A DNA stretch of 64,000 bases from an uncultured Bdellovibrio sp. (GTDB taxonomy: Bacteria; Bdellovibrionota; Bdellovibrionia; Bdellovibrionales; Bdellovibrionaceae). This document shows, in pieces, positions 8,735-53,649 of this stretch. Numbering within the stretch: position 1 is the first letter of the stretch; every line of letters begins with the position of its first letter. The notes beneath the pieces were generated by a model. It saw only the letters and a program-made list of their open reading frames with translations. It made no database searches and was not told the origin of the DNA. The translations under genes were made by a program, and so were the position numbers. The DNA lies in NCBI GenBank assembly GCA_963932905.1, contig CAWVRN010000001.1:192001-256000 (forward strand). Direction: 5' to 3'.

Positions 8735-8851
8735 AGAAATATCTCCTAAACCGAATACAGGATGATAGAGTTGTTACTTTTTAAGTTCAACGAGTTTTCA
8801 GCTGAACATCCAGAAATTACCGTAATTTCAAAACAATCGGGCAAAAATGGC

Positions 8852-35953: not shown

Positions 35954-38113
35954 ATGAAGATACTTCGAATCGTTCTGCAAATTACTACGTTCGCTTTTAC
36001 TTTTGGTTATCCATCAAAAATGGATAATCACGTGAATATTTTTTTAAGTAAAAAAGTTTCCATCACTGTGAATAAAAGTCATCCATCTTATGTAGCGTAC
36101 GATGCCGTGAATATCAAACGCACCATCGAACTGAGTAAGCAACCGATGCGTGTTATCCAATTATCCACAGATGCTGCTGCGAATAGGCAAGATGAACAAG
36201 AAATGCTTAATCACTTTCATCCGTTGGCTAAAAAAATGGTGTTAAATCCCATAGTCATCAAAAAAGATGTCGAAGTATTTAACACCCAGGCAATAAACGA
36301 AAATTATATTCGACACACCAATCTTGAAGATAACACCGGCAAACTAAATCAAAACATTTCTCCTTGGGATCAGAAAAATTGGGTTGCAGAATTTAAACCA
36401 TATTTTAGAAAGAAAGTTCAAGAAGGAACGTTTTCCGCAAATTGGACTCAAGCAGCCAGCGACAAGAACTTGAACGCGGGTTCTGTGAATGTTGGGACTG
36501 CGCCAAAGAAAACAAAAGAAACTTTTGTTACGTTTGGACCGGCATCTTCGCCAGCAGGTAATTCGAAAAATTTTGAACCTCAACGAAAACTAGCTGCAGA
36601 AAAAGAGGTATCTGAAAAAGCTGTCTATGCAAGTGCTACGGCTACTTACGACGACGGCCCATCCGCAAATAGAATTGTTGGCATTTTTGAAATTCAAAAA
36701 GGTCTTTTGTATTCTAATGAAGATCGCATCGAAATTCGTCGATATGAAGAAGGTGTATTTCGCGAAAAAGGTTCAATTAATTTACATGATTCTACCTACG
36801 AAATTTTTCCAAATGATTTCAAGGGATTTTTGTTAGGACGAATGATTGATAAGTATGGAAAAATTAAGGGTGAAGGTGTTGTACGCGTTTCTGACTCCTT
36901 ACCTAAACAAAAAGGCACATATCAAGGCCCTAAAATTACTTTAGTGGTTAAATCTGATGTCGGCGGTCGTGCCGTTAGCTCATATAATATAAATGGTAAA
37001 AATCCACTTTCTCAGCCAGCCAAAGCATCCATCTTTCAAGGCCAAGTGGAAAAACCTGTGGGCAAAGACGGACTGATTAAATTTGATAATGTCGTTAAAA
37101 ACTCACCAACTAACATAGTCATAGAAAGTAAAGGTCACTTTGCATCTCAACAAATCATATTGGCGGGCGAGAATTTTTCAACGGAACTAATTCCTGAAAA
37201 AATGGGTACGGCTTTAAAACAAATCGTGTCTGATTTAAGACAACAAAACCTGAATGATCCAAATTTATCTGTTATTTTAGGAAAAGTAAGTTTTGATGGC
37301 CAGCCGGTATCTGGTGTCAGTTTAAAAATAGAAAACGAAAACGAAATTGAACCAATCTATTTTAATTCCCTGATGTTGCCAGATAGTAGATTAACAACGA
37401 CATCGGAAAATGGTTATTACGCATTTATTGTTGATGGTGGCGAGATGCTGACCTTGATGGCTTACCGAGGGGATAAATATTTCGGGCACATCAACACGGT
37501 GGTCAGCCCAGGTATGACTTCATTTGCTGAAATCAAGAATACAATTAAAACAGAATCAGTCGAAATCAAAGTGTACGACCCGTTTTCAGGAATGCCTGAA
37601 TTTTCTGATGTCAGTTTGCAAGGTCAGCAAGAAACAATTACGATTGAAAAAGGTATAGGCGAAGCACAGCTACCTTATTTAGGGCGCTGGAGTTTTCTAT
37701 ATTCGAACCCAATCGATAAATACGTACCGGCTCATTACACTTACGTAGAAAATTCTGACTATATATATGTGCCATTGGTTAGCAAAGAATGGGTAACTTA
37801 TCTTTTTTCAAATGCTAAATTAACATTCTATCCCGGCAGTAACTTAGTTATTGGCTTCGTGATCGATGAAGATTTTGAGGTGGATATTCCAGGTTTAGAC
37901 CAAATTAAAAACCATATCGTCTATTTTGACTATTCGGGAAAGCCGACAAGTCGAGGAACGCAAGGCGGAGGGTTTGTTCTTTATAATTTACCAGAAGGTG
38001 TTTACGAACCTCTAGTTTTCGGAACTCATTCACAGAAAATCTATTCACGAATTGCGCCTCTTAAATCAGGCGATGTCTTTATATTTACGTATAAACTTGA
38101 TGGCTCCCTGTAG
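35954..38113 (+). CDS. large hypothetical exported protein with beta-sandwich (carboxypeptidase-regulatory-like) segments
   Basis: Hydrophobic N-terminus; GKV..DGQPVSGVSL, TSENGYYAF and LYNLPEGVY patterns. Confidence 0.6.
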   Translation: MKILRIVLQITTFAFTFGYPSKMDNHVNIFLSKKVSITVNKSHPSYVAYDAVNIKRTIELSKQPMRVIQLSTDAAANRQDEQEMLNHFHPLAKKMVLNPIVIKKDVEVFNTQAINENYIRHTNLEDNTGKLNQNISPWDQKNWVAEFKPYFRKKVQEGTFSANWTQAASDKNLNAGSVNVGTAPKKTKETFVTFGPASSPAGNSKNFEPQRKLAAEKEVSEKAVYASATATYDDGPSANRIVGIFEIQKGLLYSNEDRIEIRRYEEGVFREKGSINLHDSTYEIFPNDFKGFLLGRMIDKYGKIKGEGVVRVSDSLPKQKGTYQGPKITLVVKSDVGGRAVSSYNINGKNPLSQPAKASIFQGQVEKPVGKDGLIKFDNVVKNSPTNIVIESKGHFASQQIILAGENFSTELIPEKMGTALKQIVSDLRQQNLNDPNLSVILGKVSFDGQPVSGVSLKIENENEIEPIYFNSLMLPDSRLTTTSENGYYAFIVDGGEMLTLMAYRGDKYFGHINTVVSPGMTSFAEIKNTIKTESVEIKVYDPFSGMPEFSDVSLQGQQETITIEKGIGEAQLPYLGRWSFLYSNPIDKYVPAHYTYVENSDYIYVPLVSKEWVTYLFSNAKLTFYPGSNLVIGFVIDEDFEVDIPGLDQIKNHIVYFDYSGKPTSRGTQGGGFVLYNLPEGVYEPLVFGTHSQKIYSRIAPLKSGDVFIFTYKLDGSL

Positions 38114-38138
38114 TTGTTCTTAATAACTAGTTTTTGTA

Positions 38139-38154
38139 TGGAACATTCATAGCT
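38139..38154 (+). promoter_or_regulatory. possible sigma-54 promoter
   Basis: TGGAACATTCATAGCT fits GG-N10-GC, about 225 nt upstream of the 38378 gene; the -12 element is imperfect. Confidence 0.3.
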
Positions 38155-38377
38155 AAAAATTGACGTATCCCTTTGTATAGACGAATGTTTTTGCAAACAC
38201 CACTTAGGTTTAAAAAGATTTTATTAACCGAAATGAGAATGCGCGCACTCTTAAAAAAAGCGGACAAAGGATGTCTAGACTAATAGCGAGTAAGGAAAAG
38301 GAATGTGGCCAGTTGACATTATGTCTCGTAGCTGAAAATCTTTATCTGTAAATAGAAAAATAAATTTTGGAGGTACC

Positions 38378-39916
38378 ATGGTTAAGTTCTGGTATGGCGC
38401 TATTTGCGCATCAGTCTTATTTGTCGGCGCATATTTTATGTTTGGTATGCAAGTAAAAGGCAATCATTCAGTTGGAGATGTGCCTGCGGTTGAGCAACCA
38501 GCTAATCCTATCGAGGGCTTATCACGTGTTCCTAATAGCGACGGTGATCACGAAGCCAAACTGAATGCATTTATCTACAACATCAAAACAAAAGAGGATG
38601 TAGACAAAGCGATTACTGGTATCAACGAATATGAAAAAGCTAACCCTACAAGTACGGCCGCGCAAATTTATAAAAACTTTGTCGCACCCGTTAGGCTTTT
38701 CAAAGGTATGGCCTGGAGACTGCGTTTCCTAGTAGAACCTGTCGATGCTGCCTACATCGCATCGATTTCATACTTGCGGGCATTTAAGCGCAATAGCGAT
38801 CGTCGCGCTCCACATATCGATGCACTATTTGCTTACGTAACGGAGCCAAATCCGGGTGAAAATATTGAAGGTCAAACAGGTTTGTTTAAAACAGCGGGTG
38901 ACCTTCAAGATTTTATGGCGACAAAAGTGGCCGTAGCAGTTAAAGCGCAAAACGAAGCGTACAAAAAGATTTTGATTAGCCATGGCGACAACAATGCACC
39001 GCTATTTAACTTTGATGCTGGTTTAGTGTTAGGCGAAAGCGAAGTTAAAAATACTGCTTCGCAAACAATGCGTTGGAGAAAGTTCATGCCAGGTCACCTA
39101 AAAGGATTGATGGCAAATATGTACGAGCGCATGGGATTAGGCTTGTACGTCGCAAGTTATGATTTAGAAGCGCTTCAGTATTTCATGAACACATTAACAG
39201 CACGTTCGTTGGTAGCTAAAAAAAGCACAGTTGATGCAAAAACTAAAGTCGGTAATTTAGTAACAACGGTATTCGATGTTCATCTTCAATCCCCTAAGGA
39301 AGTGAGTGAATTACTTGCCTCAATGGGTAAAGATGGCGCTAAATCAGCCAAAGGAAGATTCTTAACTCTTCGCCCGGCAGCTAAATCTGGTAAGTATTTG
39401 AACGAATCATTATCAATGATCCGCAATGCTATTAACTACCGAATTGAAGCCCACAAAGACATGGAAGCATTGGCAAACAAAGGTAACCAAAAAGAATACT
39501 TTGCGAATGCTGACTTCCTAACGTCGCGTCCGGCAATCACATTGGCAGCATTAGAAAAACGTAAAAAACTATTATTTTCAAACGGACCAACTGAATTCAA
39601 AGATCGCGTGGATAATTCGGCTTTTGAAGTAAATATCTCAGCTATGTTCAATCCAAACAATCCCTACGTGAATGATCTTAAAAAATTGTACCCAGCACCT
39701 AATCAGTTTGCAGCGACGAAAGAAACCGACGGTGGTCCTCGTGAAACATTTAAATGGAACTACGATTACGGAACTCCGCAAGCTTGGCCAGATGTCACTT
39801 TCGGTGGCGTTCTACCTAATACAAACAGCCCGGCTGATTACAAAAAGAAACTAGTTAGTATTTCGCGAGATGCTTCGACTCCAGCATTAACGTATTGGTT
39901 ACGTCTATTTATGTAA
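38378..39916 (+). CDS. hypothetical exported/membrane-anchored protein
   Basis: GGAGG RBS, N-terminal hydrophobic segment; paralogous to 53640-54890. Confidence 0.75.
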   Translation: MVKFWYGAICASVLFVGAYFMFGMQVKGNHSVGDVPAVEQPANPIEGLSRVPNSDGDHEAKLNAFIYNIKTKEDVDKAITGINEYEKANPTSTAAQIYKNFVAPVRLFKGMAWRLRFLVEPVDAAYIASISYLRAFKRNSDRRAPHIDALFAYVTEPNPGENIEGQTGLFKTAGDLQDFMATKVAVAVKAQNEAYKKILISHGDNNAPLFNFDAGLVLGESEVKNTASQTMRWRKFMPGHLKGLMANMYERMGLGLYVASYDLEALQYFMNTLTARSLVAKKSTVDAKTKVGNLVTTVFDVHLQSPKEVSELLASMGKDGAKSAKGRFLTLRPAAKSGKYLNESLSMIRNAINYRIEAHKDMEALANKGNQKEYFANADFLTSRPAITLAALEKRKKLLFSNGPTEFKDRVDNSAFEVNISAMFNPNNPYVNDLKKLYPAPNQFAATKETDGGPRETFKWNYDYGTPQAWPDVTFGGVLPNTNSPADYKKKLVSISRDASTPALTYWLRLFM

Positions 39917-40562
39917 CCCTAAGAAGTCCTCGAATATACTTCGAGGACTTGTCTTGAACGTACGAGAAATTCTTTAGAGCTCGCTCCCCATCAAAAAATT
40001 CATTTTGATTGTACTTAAATTCCACAATTTTTAGGTCGTCGGGCTCTTCATTCCAAATGATCGAATGGACCGCTTTATGTAAAATTCGCTCATCTAAAGT
40101 TAGCCGCACTCTCTCATTCGCAGAAATAAAGTACGAACGGTAGTAGCGATTATATAAACTAGGAACTAAGTGTGACAAAGATTCCTGCAGTTGTGCTGGA
40201 GCTGTGGTGTGCTTCATAATATCGATCAAAGATATATTCTTATCTAAGTGAATATCATAGGAAACCGGAAACGAGAGCTTAGTTCCAACGGTTCCTTCTT
40301 TTTTTTTAATTTCTAGCACGGGGTTGGTGATTTTTTCAAAATCGCCATACCAGCGCAGGCGCACCTTAGCGCGTTGAGGGTAGCCATAAATGTGGTCGTG
40401 GAAACAATCTAAATCTAGGGTATCAAAATACAGGTTATTCACCGTTCTGGGTGTAAAAAGAGGACGGAACATTAATGGATTTAAGTGAATTTCATTTAGT
40501 AGATTAGAGACAGACGAATCTTTTACAACGATTTTAGTTTCATAGCGCCAGATATCACTCAT
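39909..40562 (-). CDS. VTC-domain (polyphosphate polymerase-like) protein
   Basis: RYETK, NNLYFDT, RAKVRLRWY, LEIKKK, YYRSYF, RLTLD, VEFKY, SKY. Confidence 0.88.
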   Translation of the reverse strand: MSDIWRYETKIVVKDSSVSNLLNEIHLNPLMFRPLFTPRTVNNLYFDTLDLDCFHDHIYGYPQRAKVRLRWYGDFEKITNPVLEIKKKEGTVGTKLSFPVSYDIHLDKNISLIDIMKHTTAPAQLQESLSHLVPSLYNRYYRSYFISANERVRLTLDERILHKAVHSIIWNEEPDDLKIVEFKYNQNEFFDGERALKNFSYVQDKSSKYIRGLLRVT

Positions 40563-41274
40563 AAAACTCCCGAAGGTTCACGGGTAAAAAGTGGGAAATG
40601 GATAAATTTCCGTCATTGTCCTTTTGGTAATAGACTGAAACCTCGGTGACCCATTTGCCTTTATTGTCTATATTACTTTCGTCAATAATCTTTTTCCATT
40701 TACCAGAAACCGACTTAAAGTCTTTGTCATTTAGTGCTTCGGCAATAGTGAGGGAATCAAGATCGTCATTATTTGGAAGATCTATTTTAAAATACGAATG
40801 GCGATGAAGTCCGTTTGTTTTCAAATTTACAAGCTGAGTATCATGACTGTCTTTGATAACTCCGGACGCTAGCTGAGTGGTAAGGTCAACATAGGATTTT
40901 GCCGCCTTAGTCGGTGATAGCAGCATAAACGGATTTGTATCTTCCTCTGACGTAATAAAGTAACTTAACAAATCGCGACTGACATCGCTTAAAGGCTCGG
41001 GCATGGAACTGATTTTTATTGGAATAGATTTCTGGCCAAGTAGAATTTTAGCATTCAATTCAGAAATGTCCATCAAAGGTGTGTTGAATTCGTTTTCTGA
41101 TTTAGCAAAGTATTCTAATTTTCTTTGCGTAATAAAGTCTAATGACAAATTGTAGTCGCGATCTTCTGGCATATTTGAAGAAATAGCTAAGCCAATATAG
41201 GCAGTTAAGGAAAACAAAACTAGGCAAGCTAACCACCCGCCCGAGTATTTGCGAAGTTGAGCCCTATGTTTCAA
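40555..41274 (-). CDS. membrane-anchored hypothetical protein, possibly a truncated CotH-like protein
   Basis: One N-terminal TM. VNLKTNGLHRHSY resembles the CotH V.L.vNG...G.Y motif. Lies between the DUF4956 and VTC genes. Confidence 0.45.
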   Translation of the reverse strand: MKHRAQLRKYSGGWLACLVLFSLTAYIGLAISSNMPEDRDYNLSLDFITQRKLEYFAKSENEFNTPLMDISELNAKILLGQKSIPIKISSMPEPLSDVSRDLLSYFITSEEDTNPFMLLSPTKAAKSYVDLTTQLASGVIKDSHDTQLVNLKTNGLHRHSYFKIDLPNNDDLDSLTIAEALNDKDFKSVSGKWKKIIDESNIDNKGKWVTEVSVYYQKDNDGNLSISHFLPVNLREFYE

Positions 41275-41960
41275 TCAAATAATCCCTGATATTCCATCAT
41301 GTTAATGTTCCAGTCGGGAATTTGCTTTCTCAAATTATCACGGAGGGATTGCACGTTGGCTATATCTTTGAATTCAACCAGGAATGATAGTTCGGATGCG
41401 CCCGCATTTTCTGACACACGCTTTAAATTCCAACGAACGGAATGTTGAGGCAATAACTCTGAAACAACTTTCAGGGGTGTTTCTGTTGATTTGCTTGAAG
41501 TTAAAAGTAAATGCATGCTAGTCGATCCAGCCCACTTAAATTGGCGCATGCGGAAAATAATAAATCCAGCCAGAATGATAAAAAATCCGATCAACGTGAT
41601 TTTCTTTTGATCAGCCCCCATTCCCAAACCGACGGCAATGGAAATGAATAAAAATGATAGTTCTTCAGGATCTTTGATCGCTGTTCTAAATCGAACGATG
41701 GACAGCGCGCCGACCAACCCCAGAGAAAGTGCTAAGGACGACTTTACGACTGTGATCACCAGCATAGTGGCCATCGCTGTTAAAATAAAATTTGTCGCAA
41801 ACACCGAGCGATTAGAGTGAGACTTGCCAAACTTTGAGTACGCCCATGCCAATAGCGTTCCCATGATCCCCGTAATACCAAGTCCGATGATGAATTGTCC
41901 CAGATCAACTTGCGGTACCTGATTTGTTAAATAGTCCTCAAAAGTTCTTACAGCGCTCAT
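41271..41960 (-). CDS. DUF4956 family membrane protein
   Basis: Signature SSLALSLGLVGALSIVRFRTAIKDP and GLGMG, plus an ACT-like C-terminal domain. Confidence 0.92.
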   Translation of the reverse strand: MSAVRTFEDYLTNQVPQVDLGQFIIGLGITGIMGTLLAWAYSKFGKSHSNRSVFATNFILTAMATMLVITVVKSSLALSLGLVGALSIVRFRTAIKDPEELSFLFISIAVGLGMGADQKKITLIGFFIILAGFIIFRMRQFKWAGSTSMHLLLTSSKSTETPLKVVSELLPQHSVRWNLKRVSENAGASELSFLVEFKDIANVQSLRDNLRKQIPDWNINMMEYQGLFD

Positions 41961-41962
41961 CT

Positions 41963-44239
41963 TTAGGTCCTTTCTGCAGATACCCGCAAAGATAAATTTT
42001 TAGTCATTCTCTTAGAATATAATAAAGCTGGCAAGACAAACATATCTCCGCAAAGCCCAAGGATCAAAGAAAGCACTAGGATCAAGGCCACTTGCGAGAA
42101 CATCAGAATATCTGTTAGAAAAAATGTCGGCATTGTTAAAGTAAAAATGAACGTGGTGCTAACCAATGAAACCGAAGTTTCTTGCAGGGAGTAAGAGATC
42201 GCTTCGTTTAGGTCGCCAGTTGCGCGTAATTTTTTTAGCAAGTAGTAAATGAAATGGGTCGTATCATCGACAGCGATCCCGAAAATAATCGCCACAAGAA
42301 CGATTAGATTATAATCCACCGTCATATCCATCATCTTCATCAAGCCACCTACCGCAACAAGGGGCAGGATATTCGGAATTAATGCCAGTAAGGACCAGCG
42401 CAGGGATTTAAAAAAGAATAAGAAGCACAAAAAAATTCCGACGAAATCCAACAGAAATGATTTTATAAAACCAGAAAAAATAGAGTTAAAAATATTGCTT
42501 CGGATAGTAGAAAATCCTTCCACTGAAGATTCAAAAACAGAGGCGTATTCAGGTTTTTGATAAATGGTACGTATTTTATCTTGGGTTTCTACTAACGTTT
42601 TCGAATCTAATGTTTTTAAATAAACAGTCATTCTGACTTCGTTGTGCGCGAGCGGATACGTTCCGTCTAGGACATTGAAATCTTCAAAAAGACTAAAGAT
42701 ATCATAGAGGTCTTTATCGGAATTAAAACCCGCAGACGCGGACTTTGTTGGATATGATTCACGTATGTATTCTTGAAAATTGCCCAAAGATTTAATATGC
42801 GCGACGGAATCAATTTGCGAAATCTCTTTTTGCAGGCTTAATAAACTATTTTCAACTTCCGGTTTTAAAAAATCGTCGCGATTTTTAGTTAATATGACGT
42901 CAACGGAACCGGTGAAGTGAAAATATTTATCCATGGCTACAATGGCTTGGCTCAACGGATGAGTAGGGACAAACTTAGTATATAAATTGTCGCCGGCTTC
43001 AAGTTTAGAGCTCAAGTATCCGAACCCGACGATCACGATGAAGAATATAACAATGATGGCTGTTCGAAATCGACGAACCCAGTCCATTAACGGAATGCCT
43101 TCAAATTTTAAAAGCGATTCCCCTATTTCTAATTCTAAATCAAAAAGCGATACCAGACATGGAATCAATTTGAATGTTAACAGGAAACAAATCGCAACAC
43201 CAAAGGCGCAATAGATCCCGAAATTTTTTATAGGCGGAATATCTGAAACCACTAATGACAACAGGCCCACCCAAGTAGTCACCGCACACATAAAACAAGG
43301 GTCCCAGATATGTCCGATGGCTTCTTTAAATTTGTCTGGCAAGGTGGCCGCTTTTGATTTCGACACGGCTGAAAATAAATGCACTATATCGGCGGTCGAG
43401 ATAATAAAAATAAACAGAAGCGCGAAACTGGAAAAGGGATTGATGCTGCCTTCAATTCCGATGATTAAACCAACCGTCGCTACGTACGATAGGCCCATCA
43501 CATATAATGAAAGCAAACATACCTTCCATGATCGGAACAATGCGAACAAAAGAGAAATGATTATGAATAACACTAACGGAAGAATTTTGACTTGGCTTTT
43601 AATAATTTCTTTTACGAAATAGTCGCGCGCAATTTCAGTTCCGATCAAGTGCACCTTTAAATCAGGATAATTTTTCTCTGTTAGACCTTTGATAAAATTA
43701 AGGCTAGCGATAACTTGCTTGATTTGCTTAGGAGATAAATCGTTATGAATATTCACATAGATTAAAGAAGCCTTTTCGTCGGGGCTTAAATAGCTATAAC
43801 GAAAAACGGGACTGTTTTGCAAAAGATCACGGCCTTTTTCTGATAAGGCCTTGTTTTCGAAAAACGTTTTCAAAAATAATTTATCGCCATCCATTTTTAC
43901 GTATTCGACTTCATTAAGAGATCGAATGGTATTTAGGTAATCGACTTTCTTAATTCTTTCGGCAGTCTCAAAAATGATATTGTAGAAATCGGGACGTGTT
44001 GGAAATGGTGTGGGTGATTCAATCAATAAATAGGCGTCATTTTCGTCATTATATTTTTCTAAATGCTGCTTATATTTTATGAGTGTTGGATCATTCGGAT
44101 CTAAAACGCTGATAATATTATAAGGTTTGATATTCTTAACGACGATAATGCCGGTGACTACAACAAGCAGGATGCTTAAGGCGACAATAAGTCGACGTAG
44201 ATGTACCTTCAACTGATTATCCATTCCGCCGCTATCCAA
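41963..44239 (-). CDS. MMPL/RND family transporter
   Basis: Two-fold 1+5 TM repeat with periplasmic loops; ISTADIVH and GIAVDDTTH. Start may be ATG 44224. Confidence 0.9.
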   Translation of the reverse strand: MDSGGMDNQLKVHLRRLIVALSILLVVVTGIIVVKNIKPYNIISVLDPNDPTLIKYKQHLEKYNDENDAYLLIESPTPFPTRPDFYNIIFETAERIKKVDYLNTIRSLNEVEYVKMDGDKLFLKTFFENKALSEKGRDLLQNSPVFRYSYLSPDEKASLIYVNIHNDLSPKQIKQVIASLNFIKGLTEKNYPDLKVHLIGTEIARDYFVKEIIKSQVKILPLVLFIIISLLFALFRSWKVCLLSLYVMGLSYVATVGLIIGIEGSINPFSSFALLFIFIISTADIVHLFSAVSKSKAATLPDKFKEAIGHIWDPCFMCAVTTWVGLLSLVVSDIPPIKNFGIYCAFGVAICFLLTFKLIPCLVSLFDLELEIGESLLKFEGIPLMDWVRRFRTAIIVIFFIVIVGFGYLSSKLEAGDNLYTKFVPTHPLSQAIVAMDKYFHFTGSVDVILTKNRDDFLKPEVENSLLSLQKEISQIDSVAHIKSLGNFQEYIRESYPTKSASAGFNSDKDLYDIFSLFEDFNVLDGTYPLAHNEVRMTVYLKTLDSKTLVETQDKIRTIYQKPEYASVFESSVEGFSTIRSNIFNSIFSGFIKSFLLDFVGIFLCFLFFFKSLRWSLLALIPNILPLVAVGGLMKMMDMTVDYNLIVLVAIIFGIAVDDTTHFIYYLLKKLRATGDLNEAISYSLQETSVSLVSTTFIFTLTMPTFFLTDILMFSQVALILVLSLILGLCGDMFVLPALLYSKRMTKNLSLRVSAERT

Positions 44240-45096
44240 AGCAGGCGTGCACCCAGCAATGTCTTAATCAGACTTCCGTAGCGGATTTTTGTATTGTCAA
44301 ATGGCGTGCGTGACCATTTGTACATTTGTACAACACCGAGCAGGAAAAACATGTTAAATCCAAAAAACAAAATCATTGAACTAAAGCCTGCCTGTTTCGG
44401 AAAAAACAGAATCTGGGTTAAATCTGTGATAACAAGGCCCGCAATCAAAAGTGCTGCCCCTACTTTAAGCGCTCGAGTAGGTCCTAATAATGTTGTGAAA
44501 TTGCGCCCGACAGCATAGGTATCGCTCGCTTTAAGTTGAAATATTTGTGTTGCGGGATAAGATCCAGCTACCGTGATAGTGAATGAAATCGCAAATAGAA
44601 CAGTCGCCACATCCGGAAGACTGTCGCTAAAAGTCGCTCCCATCATAACGCCAACAAAACCGCAACCAAGTGCATTTATCAAATTATCGATAACGCCAAC
44701 TTCTTTTCCCCGCCAAGTAAAACCCGGAAGTTTTACCGAATACAACACAGATAGTACCAAGGAAAGTGCCGCCATCGTCATCGCCCATTGGCCAAATTGG
44801 GAACTTAAAACTACGGCTAGAAACATTAAAATAATTCCAAAGTGACCCAAGTACTTTGGTTTCTCTGGTGGGTTTTCTAGGAAATTCAAAGGCCCGTTGT
44901 CGTTATCGAAGTGCGTGTTCAATGCACACGTTCCGCCGAAAAGTAGGACACTATAAATAAAAAATAAACTCAGTAGTTCAATCGCGATCGATACATGAGC
45001 ACCTTTCTGAGGATTTATCGCATATCCTGTGAGCGCAAATGTAAAGCTGGGGATGAATGATTTGGGTCTAAGATGCAGAATATAGTTTTTGATCAT
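44209..45096 (-). CDS. UbiA-superfamily prenyltransferase (YPxTQI-type)
   Basis: HLRP, NTHFDND Asp-rich motif, LYS...K, YPATQIFQ...D, multi-TM. Confidence 0.8.
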   Translation of the reverse strand: MIKNYILHLRPKSFIPSFTFALTGYAINPQKGAHVSIAIELLSLFFIYSVLLFGGTCALNTHFDNDNGPLNFLENPPEKPKYLGHFGIILMFLAVVLSSQFGQWAMTMAALSLVLSVLYSVKLPGFTWRGKEVGVIDNLINALGCGFVGVMMGATFSDSLPDVATVLFAISFTITVAGSYPATQIFQLKASDTYAVGRNFTTLLGPTRALKVGAALLIAGLVITDLTQILFFPKQAGFSSMILFFGFNMFFLLGVVQMYKWSRTPFDNTKIRYGSLIKTLLGARLLWIAAEWIIS

Positions 45097-45995
45097 TCTT
45101 TTTCTTCCTTATGAAAATGACTTGAAGAACTTAAATATTTAGAACGTGTACTGACACCGGCACCCCAAACGTCTGCCATTTTTTTTTCGAGGTCATTTAG
45201 TAAAATAGTACCTAGTTTCCTGGGTCGATATTTGTTTTCTATTTCAAGCTCATGGACAACCCATTCATCTTTTTGATGAGTTAAGGCGTCTCGAAATACA
45301 GCACGATCGTAAGATGCTTCCATTAACCATATGTTTTCAGGACGAGTTTTAAAAAACTCAGGAACTAGAAATATATTTTTCTCTGAATGCTTGATGAAGT
45401 AGGCCTTTGCAAGTGGGCTATTTTTGTCTGTGTAGATATGGTAACGTTGGCGCACAGAATGTCCCCAAACGACGGGGCGCATTTGTCTGGAATCGATACC
45501 CAAGTCTCGCATTTTTTGAAAGGGAGCCAGACTAGAATCTTTTTTTCGAGCCATCCATTGAGTGAATTTTCTAGACACTTCTGATCGAGCAGCTTCGTCA
45601 GTGATAAATTGGTTTATTAAATCGGTCATCGGGACATTATCGACTTTTTGCTTAGAAAAGTCTTTATATTCAAGTTCCATACGAATTTGTCCGGCTTCGG
45701 TCATTTCGCTTTTAATTTGGACCGCATATTCCCATTTGCCCTTTTTCTTTTCCACGCGACGCAGGCGGAAGCTGTGCGATGATCGTCTGATATTCCAATC
45801 GGGTGTATCAAAATAAATATCGTAAGTAATGTATTGTGAATGTGGATGAAAAACGAATGGATAAATAAGATTTAGTTTGTCGCCTTCAAGCTTTGTAGGG
45901 TCTATGATATATTTGCGCTGTTCTTCAACGCCAGTGCTGGCATGCAATGTCTGACAGGTTATCATTGCTACTAGAAAAATTTTGAAAATTACCAT
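45093..45995 (-). CDS. exported CYTH / triphosphate tunnel metalloenzyme
   Basis: Signal peptide, EEQRKY, DIYFDT, FRLRR, QIK, RMELE, ELEIE, SKY. Confidence 0.8.
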   Translation of the reverse strand: MVIFKIFLVAMITCQTLHASTGVEEQRKYIIDPTKLEGDKLNLIYPFVFHPHSQYITYDIYFDTPDWNIRRSSHSFRLRRVEKKKGKWEYAVQIKSEMTEAGQIRMELEYKDFSKQKVDNVPMTDLINQFITDEAARSEVSRKFTQWMARKKDSSLAPFQKMRDLGIDSRQMRPVVWGHSVRQRYHIYTDKNSPLAKAYFIKHSEKNIFLVPEFFKTRPENIWLMEASYDRAVFRDALTHQKDEWVVHELEIENKYRPRKLGTILLNDLEKKMADVWGAGVSTRSKYLSSSSHFHKEEKE

Positions 45996-47554
45996 CCAAA
46001 ACCTCGGAAGCGGCCTTTGTCGTGGAGCAGACCCTGCGGGTAGATCTCTTCGCTGGGTTCTTCGACTAAAAAACCATCTTTTACTATCCAGCGTTCTTGA
46101 TCGCGATAAGAATACATTCTATTAATTGTAATGGGGTGGGCATCCTCAATTCCAAACACAGATAAAATTTGTTTTCGACGCTCAGCCAGTTTGAAAAGGT
46201 AAAGTTCTTGAACGTAACTTGGCCAGCCAGAGTATGACAGACAATCGCGTAAGATTTTTTCGTCAATTTGAGCTATTTGACCGGCCATCCATTGAAGGTC
46301 TTCATATTGGGCTGATGTGTAGGTCTTTAAAATCGCATTTACGTGGCCGTTAAATTGAATTTTTCCGTTTTCGATGGAAACTAAATCCCAAGGAAATTCA
46401 TTGACTAGGCTAGCTTTGATATCACGAGGAAATCGATTTATCTTCACGCCCATGCTGACTCCCAGATCGCTGAACGATCCAATCAGTTTGGTTTCTGATC
46501 TTTCATTCATAAATATGGACAGCAAAGTATTTATTTCTTTGATATCCCATACACCTAACCACAACAGCGCTAAAACAGCGCCGCGCAGTTCGCGTCGGTT
46601 TATATTGTCAGGATGGCCCGATAACATTCCACCTAGGCGAAGCTCATCTTTGGGACGCGCATCGATGGCGGCTGATTTAAAAGAAACAAAATATTGACCA
46701 CGAAATGGTCCAAGCTCTGGAAATTTTGAAATTAAAGCCCGATCAATACGACCGACATTCTTAATAAAAGGGCTTAGGTTGATTTGGTATCCGTTATAGA
46801 TAAATTTTACGAAGTGAGCCACAGAACGTTTTTTCTTGTTCTCTGTTTTCCCAAGGATCAAATTTATTTCCCCTGGCTTCGAGTAATAGGGATAATCTGT
46901 GTTAAAACCAAGTGCAGAAAAAATTCGAGATGCAACAGGGTCAGAATTTACCTCGTCGCCCCATTTCATTAGCCACCGACTTCCCGTCGCTAAATCTATG
47001 ATATGAGCTTTCGGCGCGCTGCCTTTGACTTCAAGTCGATCTAAGCTTGCCCACCGAAAAGAACTTTTAATTCCATGCTCAGCTGCTTTTCTATCAAATT
47101 CTTTTTCGCGCGGACCAGCTGGTTGCGCCCAAAAGATCGAAGGCTCGATTTCAGTAATTTGCTTAATACTCTCTGGAATTTTGTAGCGCAGAAAAAAAGA
47201 ACTGAATTGATGACTCGCGCCCATCATCATTATGTCAAAAATCCCAAGTCCTTCATCAAATTTAAATTTCTGAATCCAAGAATCACGAATGTATTTTAAA
47301 TCTAAAAACAGCGCCGTTGAGCTGGGATCATCTATCTTGCCTTCATCCAAAGCTTCTTCCAGAGCCTCACAATTTCTACGAACGTGAATCAACAACTGAT
47401 CCTTACGTTTTTCTATTTTGTAACCGTCGATTTCTTTAGAGGAATCGTTTGTGAGTTCGTTACAAAGCGATCTAATTTCTGCAATGGAATTCGACGCTAA
47501 ACAAAACGCTGGCGCCGCGCAGACCAAAAGACCCAGGATAAATTTGGATACCAT
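45989..47554 (-). CDS. exported atypical kinase-fold protein
   Basis: Signal peptide; KGSAPK, WLMKWGDE, WDIKEIN (DxKxxN) and SDLG (DFG-like) in kinase order. Confidence 0.65.
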   Translation of the reverse strand: MVSKFILGLLVCAAPAFCLASNSIAEIRSLCNELTNDSSKEIDGYKIEKRKDQLLIHVRRNCEALEEALDEGKIDDPSSTALFLDLKYIRDSWIQKFKFDEGLGIFDIMMMGASHQFSSFFLRYKIPESIKQITEIEPSIFWAQPAGPREKEFDRKAAEHGIKSSFRWASLDRLEVKGSAPKAHIIDLATGSRWLMKWGDEVNSDPVASRIFSALGFNTDYPYYSKPGEINLILGKTENKKKRSVAHFVKFIYNGYQINLSPFIKNVGRIDRALISKFPELGPFRGQYFVSFKSAAIDARPKDELRLGGMLSGHPDNINRRELRGAVLALLWLGVWDIKEINTLLSIFMNERSETKLIGSFSDLGVSMGVKINRFPRDIKASLVNEFPWDLVSIENGKIQFNGHVNAILKTYTSAQYEDLQWMAGQIAQIDEKILRDCLSYSGWPSYVQELYLFKLAERRKQILSVFGIEDAHPITINRMYSYRDQERWIVKDGFLVEEPSEEIYPQGLLHDKGRFRGFGW

Positions 47555-48076
47555 TTAGGTCCTCGATTTTCCTTTGTAGTCAAATATTTCATGATGACCA
47601 ATGTAAGAATAACTTAGGAAAATAATTACGAAGCACGCATGTAGATACCAAGGCAAATCACCGAAACCGCGGTATTGAAAAAAGAATCCCCAAATAAAAG
47701 TGATCGCTGTTCCTGCGTGGATGCAAATCCACATTCCAAGGTGCACTATTGTTTCAAATTCTGTACAACGCGGTAAATGCCAGAACATTTCATCTAAAGT
47801 TTCATGCAAAGTTCTAGTGACCCAGCAGCCAATAAAAAGCGGCAACGCGATCCAGGGAACCCAGGCCATCAAAAGCAAGCTAAACATCAAACCGTAACTA
47901 GCATAGAGAATCATTCTGTGCGTACGAAGCTCACCATCGGAGATATCTTTTTTCCAAATTTGTAAATGAGTCTTATGATCAGTGTACCAAAGGACACCAA
48001 ATATAAGACCAAAGATGATCATACCTAAAGCGAAATAAAGGGCGGGAACGTCGTTGAGTTTGTTTAAAATATCCAT
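47555..48076 (-). CDS. His/Glu-rich integral membrane protein
   Basis: About 5 TM segments with DHKTH, ELRTH, HETLDEMFWH and ETIVH. Confidence 0.7.
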   Translation of the reverse strand: MDILNKLNDVPALYFALGMIIFGLIFGVLWYTDHKTHLQIWKKDISDGELRTHRMILYASYGLMFSLLLMAWVPWIALPLFIGCWVTRTLHETLDEMFWHLPRCTEFETIVHLGMWICIHAGTAITFIWGFFFQYRGFGDLPWYLHACFVIIFLSYSYIGHHEIFDYKGKSRT

Positions 48077-48894
48077 AGTTGAGTCATTCTACCCACAAAT
48101 ACTAAGCTGCAGGCAAGAATATTAAACTGCTGCAACAAGATTGAGGACATATTTTTTCTGCGTATGACTTCAATAAGGCCAAAACGATAAATAACAATTA
48201 AAACCCACATTAGCCAAAGCGCTTTTAGTTCAGGAACTAGAATAGATCCCAAATACAAAGTGGCCGCACTTAGCAGATTGATACCGTGTAGCGCATAGGC
48301 CGTTTTTTCCACACCTAATACAATAGGAAACGTGGCAACTTTATTCCGGCGGTCTTCTTCAATATCGTCTAAGTCACGGATAACACTGCCAATAGTTACT
48401 TGTAAGGTGAAAAAAAGAAACGTTACAAAAACAGATTCTAGCGAAAAGTGATCAGAACCTAGGAAAACAAGTAATCCCCAACCGACACCAATTAAAAAGT
48501 TTTTTAAAATGAAGAAAGATTTTAAACGAATGTTAAAATGATCGCGATCATGACGAAATGAATACAGAGTGCCGATGAATAGAATAAGAAGCGCGGAAAT
48601 AAAACTAGTCCAACCCAGCGTGAAGAAGGTCAAAAATGTGCAGGCAATAGACGAAATTCCAAGCCAGCGAACGCTTGGAATTTTGAAGTAGGCTAGTGTT
48701 ACTTCACTATCCATAACGTCATCAAATCCATAAACAAAAAGGACCAAGAAAATAGTTGTAATTGTAACGATCAAAAAGTGAGTCAATGTGATATCGGAAT
48801 TAAAAGTAAACCCCGTCCACGTTACACATAAGGCAGCCAATAATAAATGCTGAATAGATTTACGTTGCCAAGGCCAATTGCTAGGTGGCTTCAT
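48064..48894 (-). CDS. UbiA-superfamily prenyltransferase
   Basis: YGFDDVMD, LYS...RLK...KN and RDLDDIEEDRRNKVATFP; multi-TM. Confidence 0.85.
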   Translation of the reverse strand: MKPPSNWPWQRKSIQHLLLAALCVTWTGFTFNSDITLTHFLIVTITTIFLVLFVYGFDDVMDSEVTLAYFKIPSVRWLGISSIACTFLTFFTLGWTSFISALLILFIGTLYSFRHDRDHFNIRLKSFFILKNFLIGVGWGLLVFLGSDHFSLESVFVTFLFFTLQVTIGSVIRDLDDIEEDRRNKVATFPIVLGVEKTAYALHGINLLSAATLYLGSILVPELKALWLMWVLIVIYRFGLIEVIRRKNMSSILLQQFNILACSLVFVGRMTQLWIF

Positions 48895-50392
48895 TTTTTA
48901 TCCGTCGTGGAACAGCACCAACTGCGTGGATCAGATGCGCTAACTCCATGCGCATGTATCGCGACAACCAAAGAAAACTCAAAAATAAAGCATAAATATA
49001 TATGTAAGGCTTCTTTGGAACCCGGGCAAAACTGAATGTCTTGCGTTTGTAGTTAATTTTCGTCGTGATTCCAAGTTCCTTACGTTTATGGTAAAGAGAC
49101 AGCATTCGTTCTCTAAACCATTTGTAAAAGGGACGAATGATCGGATTAAATCGCGCTGGGTATTTTAAAAGTTTTGGAAATAAAATACTTGGATGGATGA
49201 CGAACATATAATAGCCAGCAAAATCCAACTGAGTCATCAAACCATATAATTCCTGATCACCCATCAAAGCATAACGCTTTTCATAGAGCAAAATACGGTC
49301 TTCGAATGCTTGAGAGAATAGTTTTTCATATCTCAGCCAAGAACGTTCACAGTAATGACCTGTTTTTAAATGATCTAAAATCAAAGGAGCCAACCATAGG
49401 CTTTGCTGACTATTAAATTCCATACCTGGACTAAATAAAGGATCAACAAACGCAGCTGCGTCGCCGATCAATGCCAAACCTGGTTCGCGGTATTTGCGAC
49501 TAGTGTATGGTAAATGAGGATAGTGCTTGAAACCAGTTCCTGTTGCCTCTGACGTTAGCTCACCTAAACTAGGATGATTTTTTACAAATTGGAAAAAGAA
49601 ATCCTTCGGGTGCAGTCCGTTTGTTTTCAGAATTCTTTGATCATAGACAATACCGATACTGACTGTATTATCAGATAAAGGAATGGTCCAAACCCAATAA
49701 CCTTCACCCATAAAATGAGTAGTGGCATAGTGACGATCACCGATACACCATTTATCCCAGTGAACTGATTTATGACCGTCGATACTTGAAATTTTTTTTA
49801 CATTTTCAAAATGCGCCCAAGACGAGGCTGTCATTAATTGGTTAGCCGGCATTCGCCAGTTCCACTTTTTAGAAACGATACCTTGGCGACCGGAAGAATC
49901 CACTAACCATGTTGTGCGCAGAGTTTTAATTTCTTCGCCCATTTTTACAGTTACTTGTGAATTAAAGGCCGAATAATTGAAATCCATCACATGAGCCGGT
50001 CTTATAACCTCAGCACCCAGTTCTTTAGCGTATTCCAGAAGATCATTATCAAATGTCGAACGATTTACTTGAAACCCATTGGCTTCAGATAAGATTGACG
50101 GACTTGAATAGTCGCTGGCATCCGTGATTTTCTTTGTAGCCTCGTCATGGAAAATAAAACGCAGGCCCGTTTTTCTTTGTTGTCTTTTTAGAATGTGATC
50201 AACATTGAATCGATTAAAGAAAATAGCCGTGACGTCACTGAAGCTCTCCCCTACTTTTTTAGGGAATTCAGTTGATGTCTCGATCATGGCAACGCGAGTT
50301 TCCGGTCTTTGGCGAAGAATATTAATGACCAGAATGCTAGCGGCCATGCCCGCACCCATAGTTATGATGTCGTATTTTTCAGAATTATCCAT
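48881..50392 (-). CDS. flavin-dependent halogenase-like oxidoreductase
   Basis: GAGMAA FAD motif, KVGES, K-x-G-x-x-F (RKTGLRF), WVWTIP, GDAAAFVDPLFSPG. Confidence 0.8.
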   Translation of the reverse strand: MDNSEKYDIITMGAGMAASILVINILRQRPETRVAMIETSTEFPKKVGESFSDVTAIFFNRFNVDHILKRQQRKTGLRFIFHDEATKKITDASDYSSPSILSEANGFQVNRSTFDNDLLEYAKELGAEVIRPAHVMDFNYSAFNSQVTVKMGEEIKTLRTTWLVDSSGRQGIVSKKWNWRMPANQLMTASSWAHFENVKKISSIDGHKSVHWDKWCIGDRHYATTHFMGEGYWVWTIPLSDNTVSIGIVYDQRILKTNGLHPKDFFFQFVKNHPSLGELTSEATGTGFKHYPHLPYTSRKYREPGLALIGDAAAFVDPLFSPGMEFNSQQSLWLAPLILDHLKTGHYCERSWLRYEKLFSQAFEDRILLYEKRYALMGDQELYGLMTQLDFAGYYMFVIHPSILFPKLLKYPARFNPIIRPFYKWFRERMLSLYHKRKELGITTKINYKRKTFSFARVPKKPYIYIYALFLSFLWLSRYMRMELAHLIHAVGAVPRRIKNEAT

Positions 50393-50575
50393 TTCCTACC
50401 AAAAATCTTTGCATATGGACTTTGGGCAAACAACACAAATTTTATTAAATCATAAATATATTCGGTGTTTGTCCTTACTCGTCCAGTGTCATTTGTTAAT
50501 GTTTAGACGCACACCCTATCAGACACTTGGCTTGGCATAAGTGGTTAAAATAAAAGGTTAAGTTTCAGACAAAAT

Positions 50576-51871
50576 TTAGAATTGTTCAAACCATTGACGG
50601 AAAAACTCCCCGCGAGTTTCAAAGCTTGTAAATTCATCCTGACTAACTCCCCCGGGACTAAATAACACAACAGAGTCTATTCCTAGTTTTTCGGCGTTTA
50701 AGTTTCTTAGAAGTAAATCTAGAGTCTGAAACTCAGGAGCTAAAGAGCCTAATGTCTGTTTGATGGTGGATCCGTGTTCGCCGAAAAAATAGAGGTTAAT
50801 ACTAGGATCAGAAACCGATGATTTGAGTTCGATCCAAGGAAGTTTTTTATCTCGGCCACCCAGTAATAAATTAATTTTCAGATTAGGAAAGGACTCCTTC
50901 GTAGCGTCAATAGCTGCTTTTACACTGTCGATAGTTGTGGCTTTGCTGTCATTGATGAAAATCACATTCTTTTTTAAGCCCAGATTTTCCAGACGATGCG
51001 ATAAGCCTCGAAAAGACTTAATTCCCTTGAAATAAGACGCTGGGAAACTGCATTCGATACCTAATGTCGCTGCCATGGCCAAGTTGTCCTGATTGTGTTT
51101 ACCTATTAGATCTGCTTTTTCCAACTCGTATGCCTTAAGATCGCTGTTTTCAGCACACGACCATTTCAATTTTTCCGATGATTTGCCCCGAGTGAAAGTT
51201 TTTAAATCGCCGCCATGTTCATTTAAAAACATTTTGTTTTTAGTGCGGTTTAAAAGAGTCCACTTTGTTTCATAGTATTCGTTTAACGAATTATACCGCT
51301 CCAGATGATTCGGTGACAAAAATGTCACTAAACTATAATCGACAGATAATTTTTCTACGTTTTCTAATTGATAGCTTGAAAGCTCAAGTACTATCCATTG
51401 CGCTTTTTTACTGGGATCTTTGTAAATAGACAGTGCGTATTCGCAAAAGGGAATACCTAAGTTACCACCTACAAAAACATGGGGATCAAATGTTTGAATA
51501 CCCGCACCGATGATACTTGTCGTGGTGCTCTTTCCCAGTGATCCCGTGACGCCGATAATTTTTTCTGTCGTCACTTGGCTGAGAGCTAAATTAATTTCGC
51601 TTGTAATAACAACGCCTTGATCACGCCATTTTTGTATGAACTTTTTTTGTAACGGCACTCCGGGGGAAATCACCGCAGTTTTGATATTTGTAAGGGTGTA
51701 TAATTCTGCCTCTGTTTTGTACTGGGCGTCTGGTTTGTTTTCATCAAAAGTTAAAATGTCTTTTTCTTGAAAACCAGATTCAAGTAGTAGTTTCTTTGCA
51801 GCAATTCCACTGCGGGCTAGGCCAACGATGATAACTGGAGGTTGTATTTGAGTTTTCAAATTAAACGACAT
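50576..51871 (-). CDS. murD: UDP-N-acetylmuramoyl-L-alanine--D-glutamate ligase
   Basis: GLARSG, SPGVP, GVTGSLGKSTT, LELSSYQL, HLERY, HRLE, NDSKAT. Confidence 0.92.
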   Translation of the reverse strand: MSFNLKTQIQPPVIIVGLARSGIAAKKLLLESGFQEKDILTFDENKPDAQYKTEAELYTLTNIKTAVISPGVPLQKKFIQKWRDQGVVITSEINLALSQVTTEKIIGVTGSLGKSTTTSIIGAGIQTFDPHVFVGGNLGIPFCEYALSIYKDPSKKAQWIVLELSSYQLENVEKLSVDYSLVTFLSPNHLERYNSLNEYYETKWTLLNRTKNKMFLNEHGGDLKTFTRGKSSEKLKWSCAENSDLKAYELEKADLIGKHNQDNLAMAATLGIECSFPASYFKGIKSFRGLSHRLENLGLKKNVIFINDSKATTIDSVKAAIDATKESFPNLKINLLLGGRDKKLPWIELKSSVSDPSINLYFFGEHGSTIKQTLGSLAPEFQTLDLLLRNLNAEKLGIDSVVLFSPGGVSQDEFTSFETRGEFFRQWFEQF

Positions 51872-51882
51872 ACAGTTTATTT

Positions 51883-53617: not shown

Positions 53618-53649
53618 TAGGGCCTTTGATAAAAGGGCCCTATTTTTTT
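53618..53649 (+). terminator. intrinsic terminator of the histone gene
   Basis: TAGGGCCTTT-GATA-AAAGGGCCCTA then TTTTTTT; overlaps the stop codon of the convergent gene. Confidence 0.75.

Follow-up and report, generated by a model that had tools for sequence, protein, structure and literature searches.

From what donor do exported kinases of bacteria take their phosphoryl groups in a compartment free of adenosine triphosphate (ATP)? The question is an open one, and a gene island in DNA of an uncultured Bdellovibrio sp. bears on it. The island lies in a stretch of 64,000 nucleotides (nts) of contig CAWVRN010000001.1 (positions 192,001 to 256,000), here termed the window, whose numbering is used for all positions below. 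Ten minus-strand open reading frames (ORFs), g1 to g10, at 39909–50392 encode, in that sequence, a flavin-dependent halogenase-like protein, a UbiA-family prenyltransferase (UbiA1), a membrane protein termed TM173, a protein of kinase fold (KIN), a CYTH-domain protein, a second UbiA-family protein (UbiA2), an MMPL-type transporter, a DUF4956 membrane protein, g9, which has no family, and a VTC-domain protein. Two distant phyla, Bdellovibrionota and Bacteroidota, share a core of four of these: UbiA1, TM173, and the kinase and CYTH protein, both exported. The reading favoured here, held tentatively and as something short of probable, is that the island assembles and tailors a prenyl-anchored lipid of the envelope and exports it, and that, outside the cytoplasm, the kinase and the CYTH protein phosphorylate this lipid or a target close to it in the envelope.

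The block is an accessory island inserted between a conserved gene for a 719-amino acid (aa) protein and murD. It is present in five of the ten genomes of the genus (the window's own, and four of nine congeners judged by the kinase orthologue), and the kinase orthologue is also found in the genome G040, which belongs to the same order but to a different family. The complete gene order, from a 512-aa gene to murD, is seen in G006, G008 and G009, and in G003 as far as its contig reaches. Whether close relatives lack the block next to murD had been raised in the original prediction, a note made from the sequence alone, and two complete congeners, G007 and G004, do show the empty site: both have the 719-aa gene, murD and a metallophosphoesterase gene in one neighbourhood, and all eleven island genes are missing from between them. 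The three genes are immediate neighbours in G007; in G004 murD is separated from the 719-aa gene by an unrelated ORF of 487 aa. The 719-aa gene, which marks the insertion site, is present in all four congeners searched (80% identity in G008, 44–69% in three cluster-less ones).

The tight packing of the ORFs is not a chance run, since the gene order recurs with 59–96% protein identity in four congeners and 28–56% in the other family. From g1 to g10 the successive junctions are overlaps of 14 and 13 nts, an abutment (0), overlaps of 7, 4 and 31 nts, a gap of 2 nts, and overlaps of 4 and 8 nts; the ORF listing agrees exactly with the ten same-strand genes, coordinates and junctions of the original prediction. 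The ten genes stand as they were listed, but they are not the full extent. The 512-aa gene, which converges on g10 and whose 3′ end overlaps it by 8 nts, was not found in any of the five congeners without the cluster, and it adjoins the cluster in every island-bearing genome of the genus whose contig reaches that end, as well as in G040 and in L031, one of the loci described below. Since this gene travels with the block, the island has eleven genes (38378–50392). Its product has 15 homologues, none of them named. G040 has nine detectable homologues of island genes, and a gene of the same size at the place of g9, but there the halogenase gene is at the opposite end of the cluster, beside the 512-aa homologue. 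That the genes were rearranged and yet kept is good evidence that they are functionally linked. The island genes are inherited together.

How much of the island is of one piece is shown by its distribution further afield. In single genomes representing 185,579 species, a scan yielded 41 loci with kinase orthologues at 31–51% identity, 8 of them with Bdellovibrionota-type titles, 32 from Bacteroidota (mostly Crocinitomicaceae, including Crocinitomix algicola and Putridiphycobacter roseus) and 1 from a metagenome-assembled genome (MAG) titled "Arenicella"; it also gave 39 paralogue loci (L071–L109) at 24–34% identity. A library of 1.84 billion representatives contains 491 kinase relatives, 25 of them at E ≤ 1e-30. 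The ORFs of 43 loci (the 41 orthologue loci, L016 and L018) were clustered, and as many of the contigs are short, the resulting counts are lower bounds. The kinase is found in all 43, CYTH in 39, TM173 in 30, UbiA1 in 28, a 209-aa signal-bearing protein in 20 (Bacteroidota only), the halogenase in 14, UbiA2 in 7, MMPL, DUF4956 and VTC in 6 each, and the 512-aa gene in 3. CYTH adjoins the kinase in the 39, and the four remaining contigs end at the kinase gene. In three of five cases where TM173 is missing from the locus, it is present elsewhere in the genome.

Among 41 related genomes, the kinase orthologue, TM173 and CYTH are found in the same 6, which amount to roughly two independent lineages. 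Of 81 genomes from the Bacteroidota family, 8 have CYTH, each with TM173 on the contig that carries it; five of the 8 were already known carriers. Together, synteny and genome profiles identify the ancient unit as UbiA1-TM173 plus the kinase-CYTH pair. The halogenase is a frequent but dispensable member. After CYTH, the order UbiA2-(MMPL)-DUF4956-x-VTC is present in all the Bdellovibrionota-type loci that reach that far (L031, L032, L033, L039, L018 and the genus; 28–54% identity) and was seen in no Bacteroidota locus; UbiA2 and the DUF4956-x-VTC module are linked to the core only in Bdellovibrionota. The original prediction, of a ten-gene operon for one product, was to be abandoned if homologues of its genes never co-occurred elsewhere. 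They do, in congeners, G040 and the Bacteroidota loci, but the set proves divisible: across phyla only UbiA1, TM173, the kinase and CYTH stay together.

Three features of the wider set of loci are of note in their own right. One Bacteriovoracia MAG (JBKHVI01) has two kinase-CYTH pairs, one in a full cluster (L031) and one alone (L060), with no UbiA1 or TM173 within the flanks of the latter. The sole locus with a gammaproteobacterial title (L066, JBLFXO010000209.1, Arenicella sp.) has the gene order of the Bacteroidota variant L062, and reflects either transfer or a binning error. A protein of about 200 aa with a signal-like N-terminus and no Pfam family is encoded directly beside the kinase gene in 20 of the 43 loci, all of them Bacteroidota (for example L035 8991–9620, minus strand, and L037 8643–9239, plus strand); on inspection it resembles a small beta-barrel of the outer membrane.

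What kind of enzyme is the constant member of all these loci? The kinase has no Pfam or NCBIfam family, a phmmer search of the PDB gave nothing at E ≤ 10, and with Foldseek no PDB match reached E ≤ 0.001, the top-ranked rows inspected all being kinases. In the Atlas, the clusters at 0.96–0.97 are all unnamed, and kinase-type named clusters at 0.82–0.84 are leads only. However, an AlphaFold (AF2) model from 32 sequences has a predicted local distance difference test score (pLDDT) of 92.2, and its top 14 matches in a structural search against representatives are all kinases of the atypical class (Z 8.9–12.6), among them CtkA (12.6), Fam20C (11.5), PI4KIIalpha (11.4), actin-fragmin kinase (11.4), CotH (10.4), MavQ (9.8) and HipA (9.5). 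Four residues are invariant in the 32 sequences: K197, the catalytic Lys, D337 and N342, the Asp and Asn of the catalytic loop, and D363, the metal-binding Asp. Fold search, alignment and model together provide the bilobal kinase fold with its full catalytic set, and 34 of 38 orthologues have a signal-like N-terminus. With all of these in agreement, the early call of an exported kinase from sequence alone is sound.

The fold is shared with Fam20C, CotH, CtkA, PI4KIIalpha and MavQ over some 205–258 aligned residues (Z 9.8–12.6), the catalytic Lys, Asp-x-x-x-x-Asn and metal-binding Asp of atypical kinases are likewise invariant, and a signal peptide is common to it and to Fam20 and CotH. It differs from these kinases in having only 7–15% identity to them and no sequence-family match, and in an N-terminal three-helix domain and C-terminal extension of its own. 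Nor does it belong to the CotH family (PF08757), to which there was no Pfam match at E ≤ 0.01, the likeness to CotH being in fold only, with 7% identity. The wider kinase family of L071–L109 comprises proteins of 600–700 aa and 1100–1300 aa, which share the kinase core (residues about 170–470, 24–28% identity) and have no Pfam family; it is abundant in MAGs titled Riflebacteria or Ozemobacteraceae, often with several copies per genome.

Given that CtkA, Fam20C, actin-fragmin kinase and CotH are among the nearest folds (Z 10.4–12.6), the kinase and CYTH protein might phosphorylate an envelope or matrix protein or glycan in the manner of Fam20, CotH or POMK, with UbiA and TM173 making a lipid carrier or anchor rather than the substrate. 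That the nearest solved relatives of UbiA1 act on phosphate-bearing lipid carriers is in keeping with this. However, lipid kinases such as PI4KIIalpha and MavQ score equally, and the loci have in common neither a glycosyltransferase nor a protein that could be the substrate; a protein or glycan target is regarded as unlikely. A different thought is prompted by the best fold match, CtkA, being a secreted kinase of Helicobacter, and by MavQ being an effector of Legionella. Relatives of the window have titles from Bdellovibrionota, a phylum with predators among its members. Kinase and CYTH protein could then be secreted effectors or toxins that use the ATP of prey or competitors, the membrane genes being unrelated or a protective lipid pathway. 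Against this, the same pair is conserved in 32 Bacteroidota loci, always in company with enzymes of the inner membrane. There was no sign of secretion-system or immunity genes or of features of polymorphic toxins, and searches with PHROGs (4 proteins) and PADLOC (11 proteins) gave no matches, for which reason a phage or defence reading was also dropped. A role as effectors is very unlikely.

The partner of the kinase, the CYTH protein, matches Pfam CYTH (PF01928) at 26.9 bits (cut-off 23.2) over residues 52–110 only, and its profile gives weak PDB matches to class IV adenylate cyclases (0.0045) and inorganic triphosphatase (0.092). E24, Q26, K28, R77, R79, K95, E97, R105, E107, R182, R184, E226, E249, E251, E253 and K255 are invariant in 21 CYTH sequences. 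The canonical N-terminal motif of CYTH proteins is ExExK. Here it is ExQxK (E24, Q26, K28), invariant in the 21, with the other charged tunnel residues kept. Export, as originally proposed, is borne out by a signal-like N-terminus in 33 of 34 orthologues, with the tunnel strand beginning a few residues after it. For a kinase-CYTH complex, structure prediction gave scores of 0.58, 0.60 and 0.42, the best of three controls scoring 0.00; contact agreement between runs was at least 85% and the partner pLDDT at least 82. Of 157 solved complexes 116 reach the mark applied to such predictions, as do 2 of 215 mismatched pairs, but only 18 of the 157 do so with a score of 0.60 or less, the range into which both passing mismatches fall. 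The modelling thus lends weak support to direct contact between the kinase and the CYTH protein.

The other half of the core is UbiA1 and TM173. UbiA1 exceeds the Pfam cut-off for UbiA (PF01040; 63.4 versus 34.2 bits). The hallmark of the UbiA superfamily is two Asp-rich motifs. In UbiA1 the second is RDxxDxxxD (R173, D174, D177 and D181, invariant in 19 orthologues), and the first is DDxxD, with NDxxD in the majority of orthologues. Its nearest solved chains are digeranylgeranylglyceryl phosphate (DGGGP) synthase (8.2e-6) and decaprenyl-phosphate phosphoribosyltransferase (0.075). UbiA2 also exceeds the cut-off (45.7 versus 34.2 bits), and N60, D64, D66, D137 and D192 are invariant in 8 sequences (NxxxDxD), but it lacks a recognisable second motif; of the two UbiA prenyltransferases originally proposed, the first is secure on its motifs and the second is a divergent match to the family. 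TM173 has no Pfam, NCBIfam or PHROGs family, its Atlas clusters are all unnamed, and its 26 homologues are unnamed or "hypothetical protein". Its AF2 model has five long helices (pLDDT 91.4), for which the best structural match among representatives (Z 8.4; bestrophin, TTYH and designed bundles) is helical-bundle noise. Four (D/E)xxxH pairs, D33/H37, E49/H53, E96/H100 and E108/H112, are invariant in 19 sequences, as are R88, E92, D95, R103, C104 and E163, and these conserved residues putatively form a metal site.

The halogenase, where present, accompanies this core. It passes the Pfam cut-off for Trp_halogenase (PF04820; 6.7e-12, 45.4 bits versus 21), and 18 of its 20 PDB sequence matches are halogenases, with PltA best at 2.5e-22. 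GxGxxG, the active-site Lys, WxWxIP and FxDPxxSPG are diagnostic motifs of flavin halogenases. The flavin adenine dinucleotide (FAD) motif is here GAGMAA (residues 13–18), and 13 orthologues have K74, W233xW235xI237 and GDxxxFxDPxxSPG without exception, the Pro of WxWxIP being kept only in Bdellovibrionota members; K74 is the candidate counterpart of the PrnA or PltA lysine. Family cut-off, PDB matches and motifs all sustain the halogenase call of the original prediction. The best NCBIfam match, CmlS (1.2e-24, 86.7 bits), is far under its equivalog cut-off of 900, and the protein is thus taken as a halogenase-family enzyme and a putative halogenase. PltA, ChlB4, CmlS and CndH, its best sequence matches (2.5e-22 to 1.8e-13), share with it the FAD motif, Lys74, WxWxI and FxDPxxSPG. 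It differs from the PltA group in a conserved hydrophobic C-terminal tail, and in the window having neither a carrier protein nor a flavin reductase.

UbiA, a flavin mono-oxygenase, a Coq7-like di-iron hydroxylase and a UbiB/Coq8-like kinase would be the elements of a pathway to a quinone-like redox lipid, and the enzyme classes of the island, with the paired carboxylate/histidine motifs of TM173 and a weak match of UbiH/UbiF-type models to g1 (7.2e-8 and weaker), do resemble the ubiquinone pathway. But g1 matches halogenases far better and keeps WxWxI, the kinase and CYTH protein are exported, there is no Coq8/UbiB chain in the top 50 fold matches of the kinase, and Pfam and NCBIfam find no methyltransferase or decarboxylase in the cluster. 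Ubiquinone logic is given hardly any weight.

Several features point instead to a membrane lipid that is exported. The transporter g7 is clearly an MMPL protein (Pfam, 82.7 bits versus a cut-off of 20.5), and its matches to the NCBIfam models HAE3 (1e-35, 123 versus 351.9 bits) and HpnN (9.6e-16, 56.9 versus 751.85 bits) are below their cut-offs. As with HpnN/MMPL lipid exporters, an MMPL/HAE3 transporter is here beside lipid-tailoring enzymes. It is absent between UbiA2 and DUF4956 in L032, L033 and L039; among other loci, MMPL is present in L046 and L065, and an ATP-binding cassette (ABC) ATPase with an ABC-2 permease in the L037 group. A membrane lipid is the likely product, to judge from the lipid-related neighbours, the halogenase's membrane tail and the presence of two UbiA enzymes, and the constancy of the exported kinase-CYTH pair argues for a phosphate reaction at the outer face.

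In the variant cluster L062, kinase-CYTH and halogenase-TM173-UbiA1 are separated by genes in which Pfam identifies a ketosynthase, acyl carrier protein (ACP), FabA-like dehydratase, short-chain dehydrogenase/reductase (SDR), zinc dehydrogenase and alpha/beta hydrolase. Judged by sequence family, the set is complete in L065, and L066 has most of it up to the end of the contig. These variants (L062 12428–21455, L065 1898–17046, L066 1574–6601) are from two Bacteroidota MAGs and the "Arenicella" MAG, and may reveal an acyl or aryl part of the product. Aryl-polyene and flexirubin-type clusters pair halogenases with MMPL or LolA-like export. Though the three variants carry some or all of the ketosynthase, ACP, FabA-like dehydratase and SDR of that type, the ketosynthase pair and ACP that such clusters need are lacking in the window, and UbiA, kinase, CYTH and VTC genes, all present in the island, are not known from aryl-polyene clusters. 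Elsewhere, two cyclopropane-fatty-acyl-phospholipid-synthase-like genes, a DUF1365 gene and an amine-oxidase-like flavoprotein gene are just upstream of UbiA1 (L031 3449–7711, L033 522–4778, and L034); the group may be a further lipid-modifying neighbour or a coincidence. An NADPH-dependent flavin mononucleotide (FMN) reductase gene (f32) follows, or is found shortly after, the VTC gene in L032 (13199–13693), L033 (15217–15711) and L039, three loci with no halogenase nearby.

From where would an exported kinase draw phosphate? The periplasm has no ATP, and for that reason the last genes of the island draw attention as a source of polyphosphate or triphosphate. The VTC-domain protein has a strong Pfam match (PF09359; 1.4e-24, 87.4 bits versus a cut-off of 23), and R6, E8, K10, R64, K66, R68, R70, E84, K86, K88, R142 and R153 are invariant in 9 sequences. 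It is the product of the only VTC gene in the window's genome. Within the genus a full VTC match is found only inside the island, cluster-less G002 (83% complete) having a 40-residue VTC fragment at a contig end. DUF4956 (56.8 bits versus a cut-off of 30.6) is with VTC in all six Bdellovibrionota-type loci that reach that far, and a gene of a size similar to that of g9 is always between the two. The protein g9 has no family in Pfam, NCBIfam or PHROGs, and as hhalign gives 8–13% probability for it against the same-position genes of other loci, homology is not claimed; the G040 gene at the place of g9 does match the L031 group (hhalign 96%).

The eukaryotic VTC complex, with its Vtc4 tunnel and Vtc1/2/3 membrane domains, couples polyphosphate synthesis to transport across the vacuolar membrane. 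The VTC domain, its basic tunnel residues and a membrane-protein partner (here in a neighbouring gene) are common to it and g10, but g10 is only 217 aa long and has no SPX domain, its membrane partner is DUF4956 and not of Vtc1 type, and its PDB matches to Vtc4 are marginal (0.077). The accessible part of one treatment of VTC (PMC10657179) deals with the eukaryotic complex only. Closer to the present arrangement is a streptococcal pel operon with a CotH-like secreted kinase, a VTC-like protein and a 4-transmembrane protein, left unexplained by the authors in the accessible part of their report (10.1101/2024.04.20.589940). The accessory genes of Gram-positive pel operons, as described there, specify an exported atypical kinase, a cytoplasmic Vtc4-like enzyme and a small DUF4956-type multi-pass protein in one operon, as does the putative operon here. 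A trio of secreted kinase, VTC and DUF4956 is thus of a kind already noted in the literature and unexplained. In the island, however, the kinase is not CotH by sequence, an exported CYTH protein is its constant partner, the linkage is to UbiA enzymes, a halogenase and an exporter of the resistance-nodulation-division (RND) type rather than to a polysaccharide synthase, and the cell has two membranes.

A second, unrelated VTC locus also has a relative of the kinase, in company with enzymes of phospholipid type. In G040 (L115, G040:C1:32000-48000, 2575–11269) and G028 (L116, G028:C59), two genomes of one genus, the order is a HAAS-domain protein, a PLD-like protein, a member of the endonuclease/exonuclease/phosphatase family, a 259-aa protein, VTC, a 175-aa protein and a 1206-aa kinase paralogue. 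The paralogue gene is about 0.4 kb downstream of this second VTC gene in G040, and the pairing is the same in G028.

Does the VTC-DUF4956 pair serve the kinase at all? It could be a generic polyphosphate module (g8–g10, perhaps with g6–g7) with its own phosphate economy, which sits beside the core, with or without halogenase, and does not feed the kinase. The 32 Bacteroidota core loci have no VTC or DUF4956 within 10 kb, and of 15 among the 41 relatives that have VTC, ten have no kinase orthologue. In Bacteroidota carriers the VTC-DUF4956 pair stands alone, being unlinked to the core and elsewhere in the genome in all five carriers checked. Even that joint presence says nothing specific, since 63 of the 81 genomes of the Bacteroidota family have VTC, core or not, and VTC as a marker of Bacteroidota carriers was set aside as uninformative on this count. 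The case for two unrelated systems is weakened by Bdellovibrionota, where in all loci with enough sequence both parts are adjacent, on the same strand and overlapping, at the identities given above, by the island having the only VTC gene of the genus, and by the kinase paralogue beside the VTC gene in G040 and G028. On balance two separate systems are rather unlikely, though the likeliest of the alternatives.

The independence of VTC from the core in Bacteroidota also weighs against the favoured reading of a prenyl-anchored lipid phosphorylated outside the cytoplasm, and it is not alone in doing so. The CYTH protein, having ExQxK in place of ExExK, may bind rather than hydrolyse. An alignment of 8 UbiA2 sequences shows no canonical second DxxxD motif. 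In the Bacteroidota family, three genomes have TM173 without CYTH, and the non-independence of related genomes inflates the support that the profile matches give. There is no halogenase within 10 kb in the full-flank loci L031, L033, L036, L050, L053, L068 and L069, and halogenation is therefore not essential to core function. PltA, ChlB4, CmlS and CndH are mostly carrier-protein-dependent, and Pfam and NCBIfam scans detect no carrier protein in the window, nor any gene for aromatic-precursor, polyketide or prenyl-diphosphate synthesis. Finally, the 39 paralogue loci L071–L109 have no VTC, CYTH or UbiA partner nearby, and a general kinase-VTC rule was rejected on that ground.

How, on the favoured reading, could the island work? 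UbiA1, presumed to be translationally coupled to the putatively metal-binding TM173, would prenylate and modify a membrane-bound acceptor, which the membrane-tailed flavin halogenase, where present, would chlorinate or brominate. The HpnN-like MMPL protein, or in some Bacteroidota the ABC system, would move the lipid outward, and the kinase-CYTH pair would act on it at the periplasmic face. In Bdellovibrionota, the VTC enzyme with DUF4956 and g9 would make polyphosphate or triphosphate and pass it across the inner membrane, and VTC-DUF4956 may in this way supply polyphosphate as phosphate donor. The full chain, in which VTC polymerises from ATP, DUF4956 (with g9) threads polyphosphate out, CYTH docked on the kinase receives it, and the kinase uses it instead of ATP to phosphorylate an outer-envelope lipid that UbiA1 and TM173 make, prenylated and in some cases halogenated, is unlikely to be right in every link.

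The features of the island and its flanks are collected in the table. Eight of the ten original family calls hold, seven by Pfam or NCBIfam (g1, g2, g5, g6, g7, g8 and g10) and the kinase by fold and catalytic residues; g3, g4, g9 and the 512-aa protein match neither database. Apart from the spacer between murD and g1, a likely candidate site for the island's own promoter, there is no sizeable non-coding gap. A scan for promoters and terminators did no better than shuffles (28 versus 35.5 and 15 versus 11.4), Rfam gave no match in 38000–52000 at E ≤ 1, and base composition is flat over the block and its flanks (fraction of G plus C 0.38–0.41).

Table. Genes and spacer of the island and its flanks, in window numbering
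Feature	Position	Strand	Length	Description
719-aa gene	35954–38113	+	719 aa	flanking gene; no Pfam or NCBIfam family
Eleventh gene	38378–39916	+	512 aa	no family; N-terminal hydrophobic segment; convergent on g10
g10	39909–40562	-	217 aa	VTC-domain (Vtc4-like triphosphate tunnel) protein, cytoplasmic
g9	40555–41274	-	239 aa	no family; single N-terminal hydrophobic segment
g8	41271–41960	-	229 aa	DUF4956 membrane protein
g7	41963–44239	-	758 aa	MMPL/HAE3-type RND transporter; variable member
g6	44209–45096	-	295 aa	divergent UbiA-family protein 2 (UbiA2)
g5	45093–45995	-	300 aa	CYTH/triphosphate-tunnel-like, Sec signal predicted; core gene
g4	45989–47554	-	521 aa	atypical protein-kinase-fold enzyme (KIN), Sec signal predicted; core gene
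g3	47555–48076	-	173 aa	membrane protein TM173, no family; core gene
g2	48064–48894	-	276 aa	UbiA-family prenyltransferase 1 (UbiA1); core gene; 13-nt overlap with g3
g1	48881–50392	-	503 aa	flavin-dependent halogenase-like, hydrophobic C-terminal tail
murD-g1 spacer	50393–50575		183 nt	only sizeable non-coding gap
murD	50576–51871	-		directly upstream of g1, same strand; TIGR01087 268.9 bits, cut-off 211.95
416-aa gene	53640–54890	-	416 aa	flanking gene; no Pfam or NCBIfam family

What is new here is three unannotated protein families, those of the kinase, of the 512-aa protein and of TM173, which has four (D/E)xxxH motifs, in a halogenase-containing cluster that has no polyketide synthase, non-ribosomal peptide synthetase or terpene-synthase core. 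The original prediction knew of no described pathway with this gene set, and none was found in the literature, most subscription journals being outside the search. Since two cultivated Bacteroidota, Putridiphycobacter roseus and Crocinitomix algicola, carry the four-gene core, knock-outs, lipidomics and donor assays are feasible. In one transferable unit the island joins an exported kinase, an exported tunnel protein, a cytoplasmic polyphosphate-polymerase domain of yeast type with its membrane partner, prenyl-lipid enzymes and a lipid exporter, and it may show how bacteria do phosphate chemistry without ATP.

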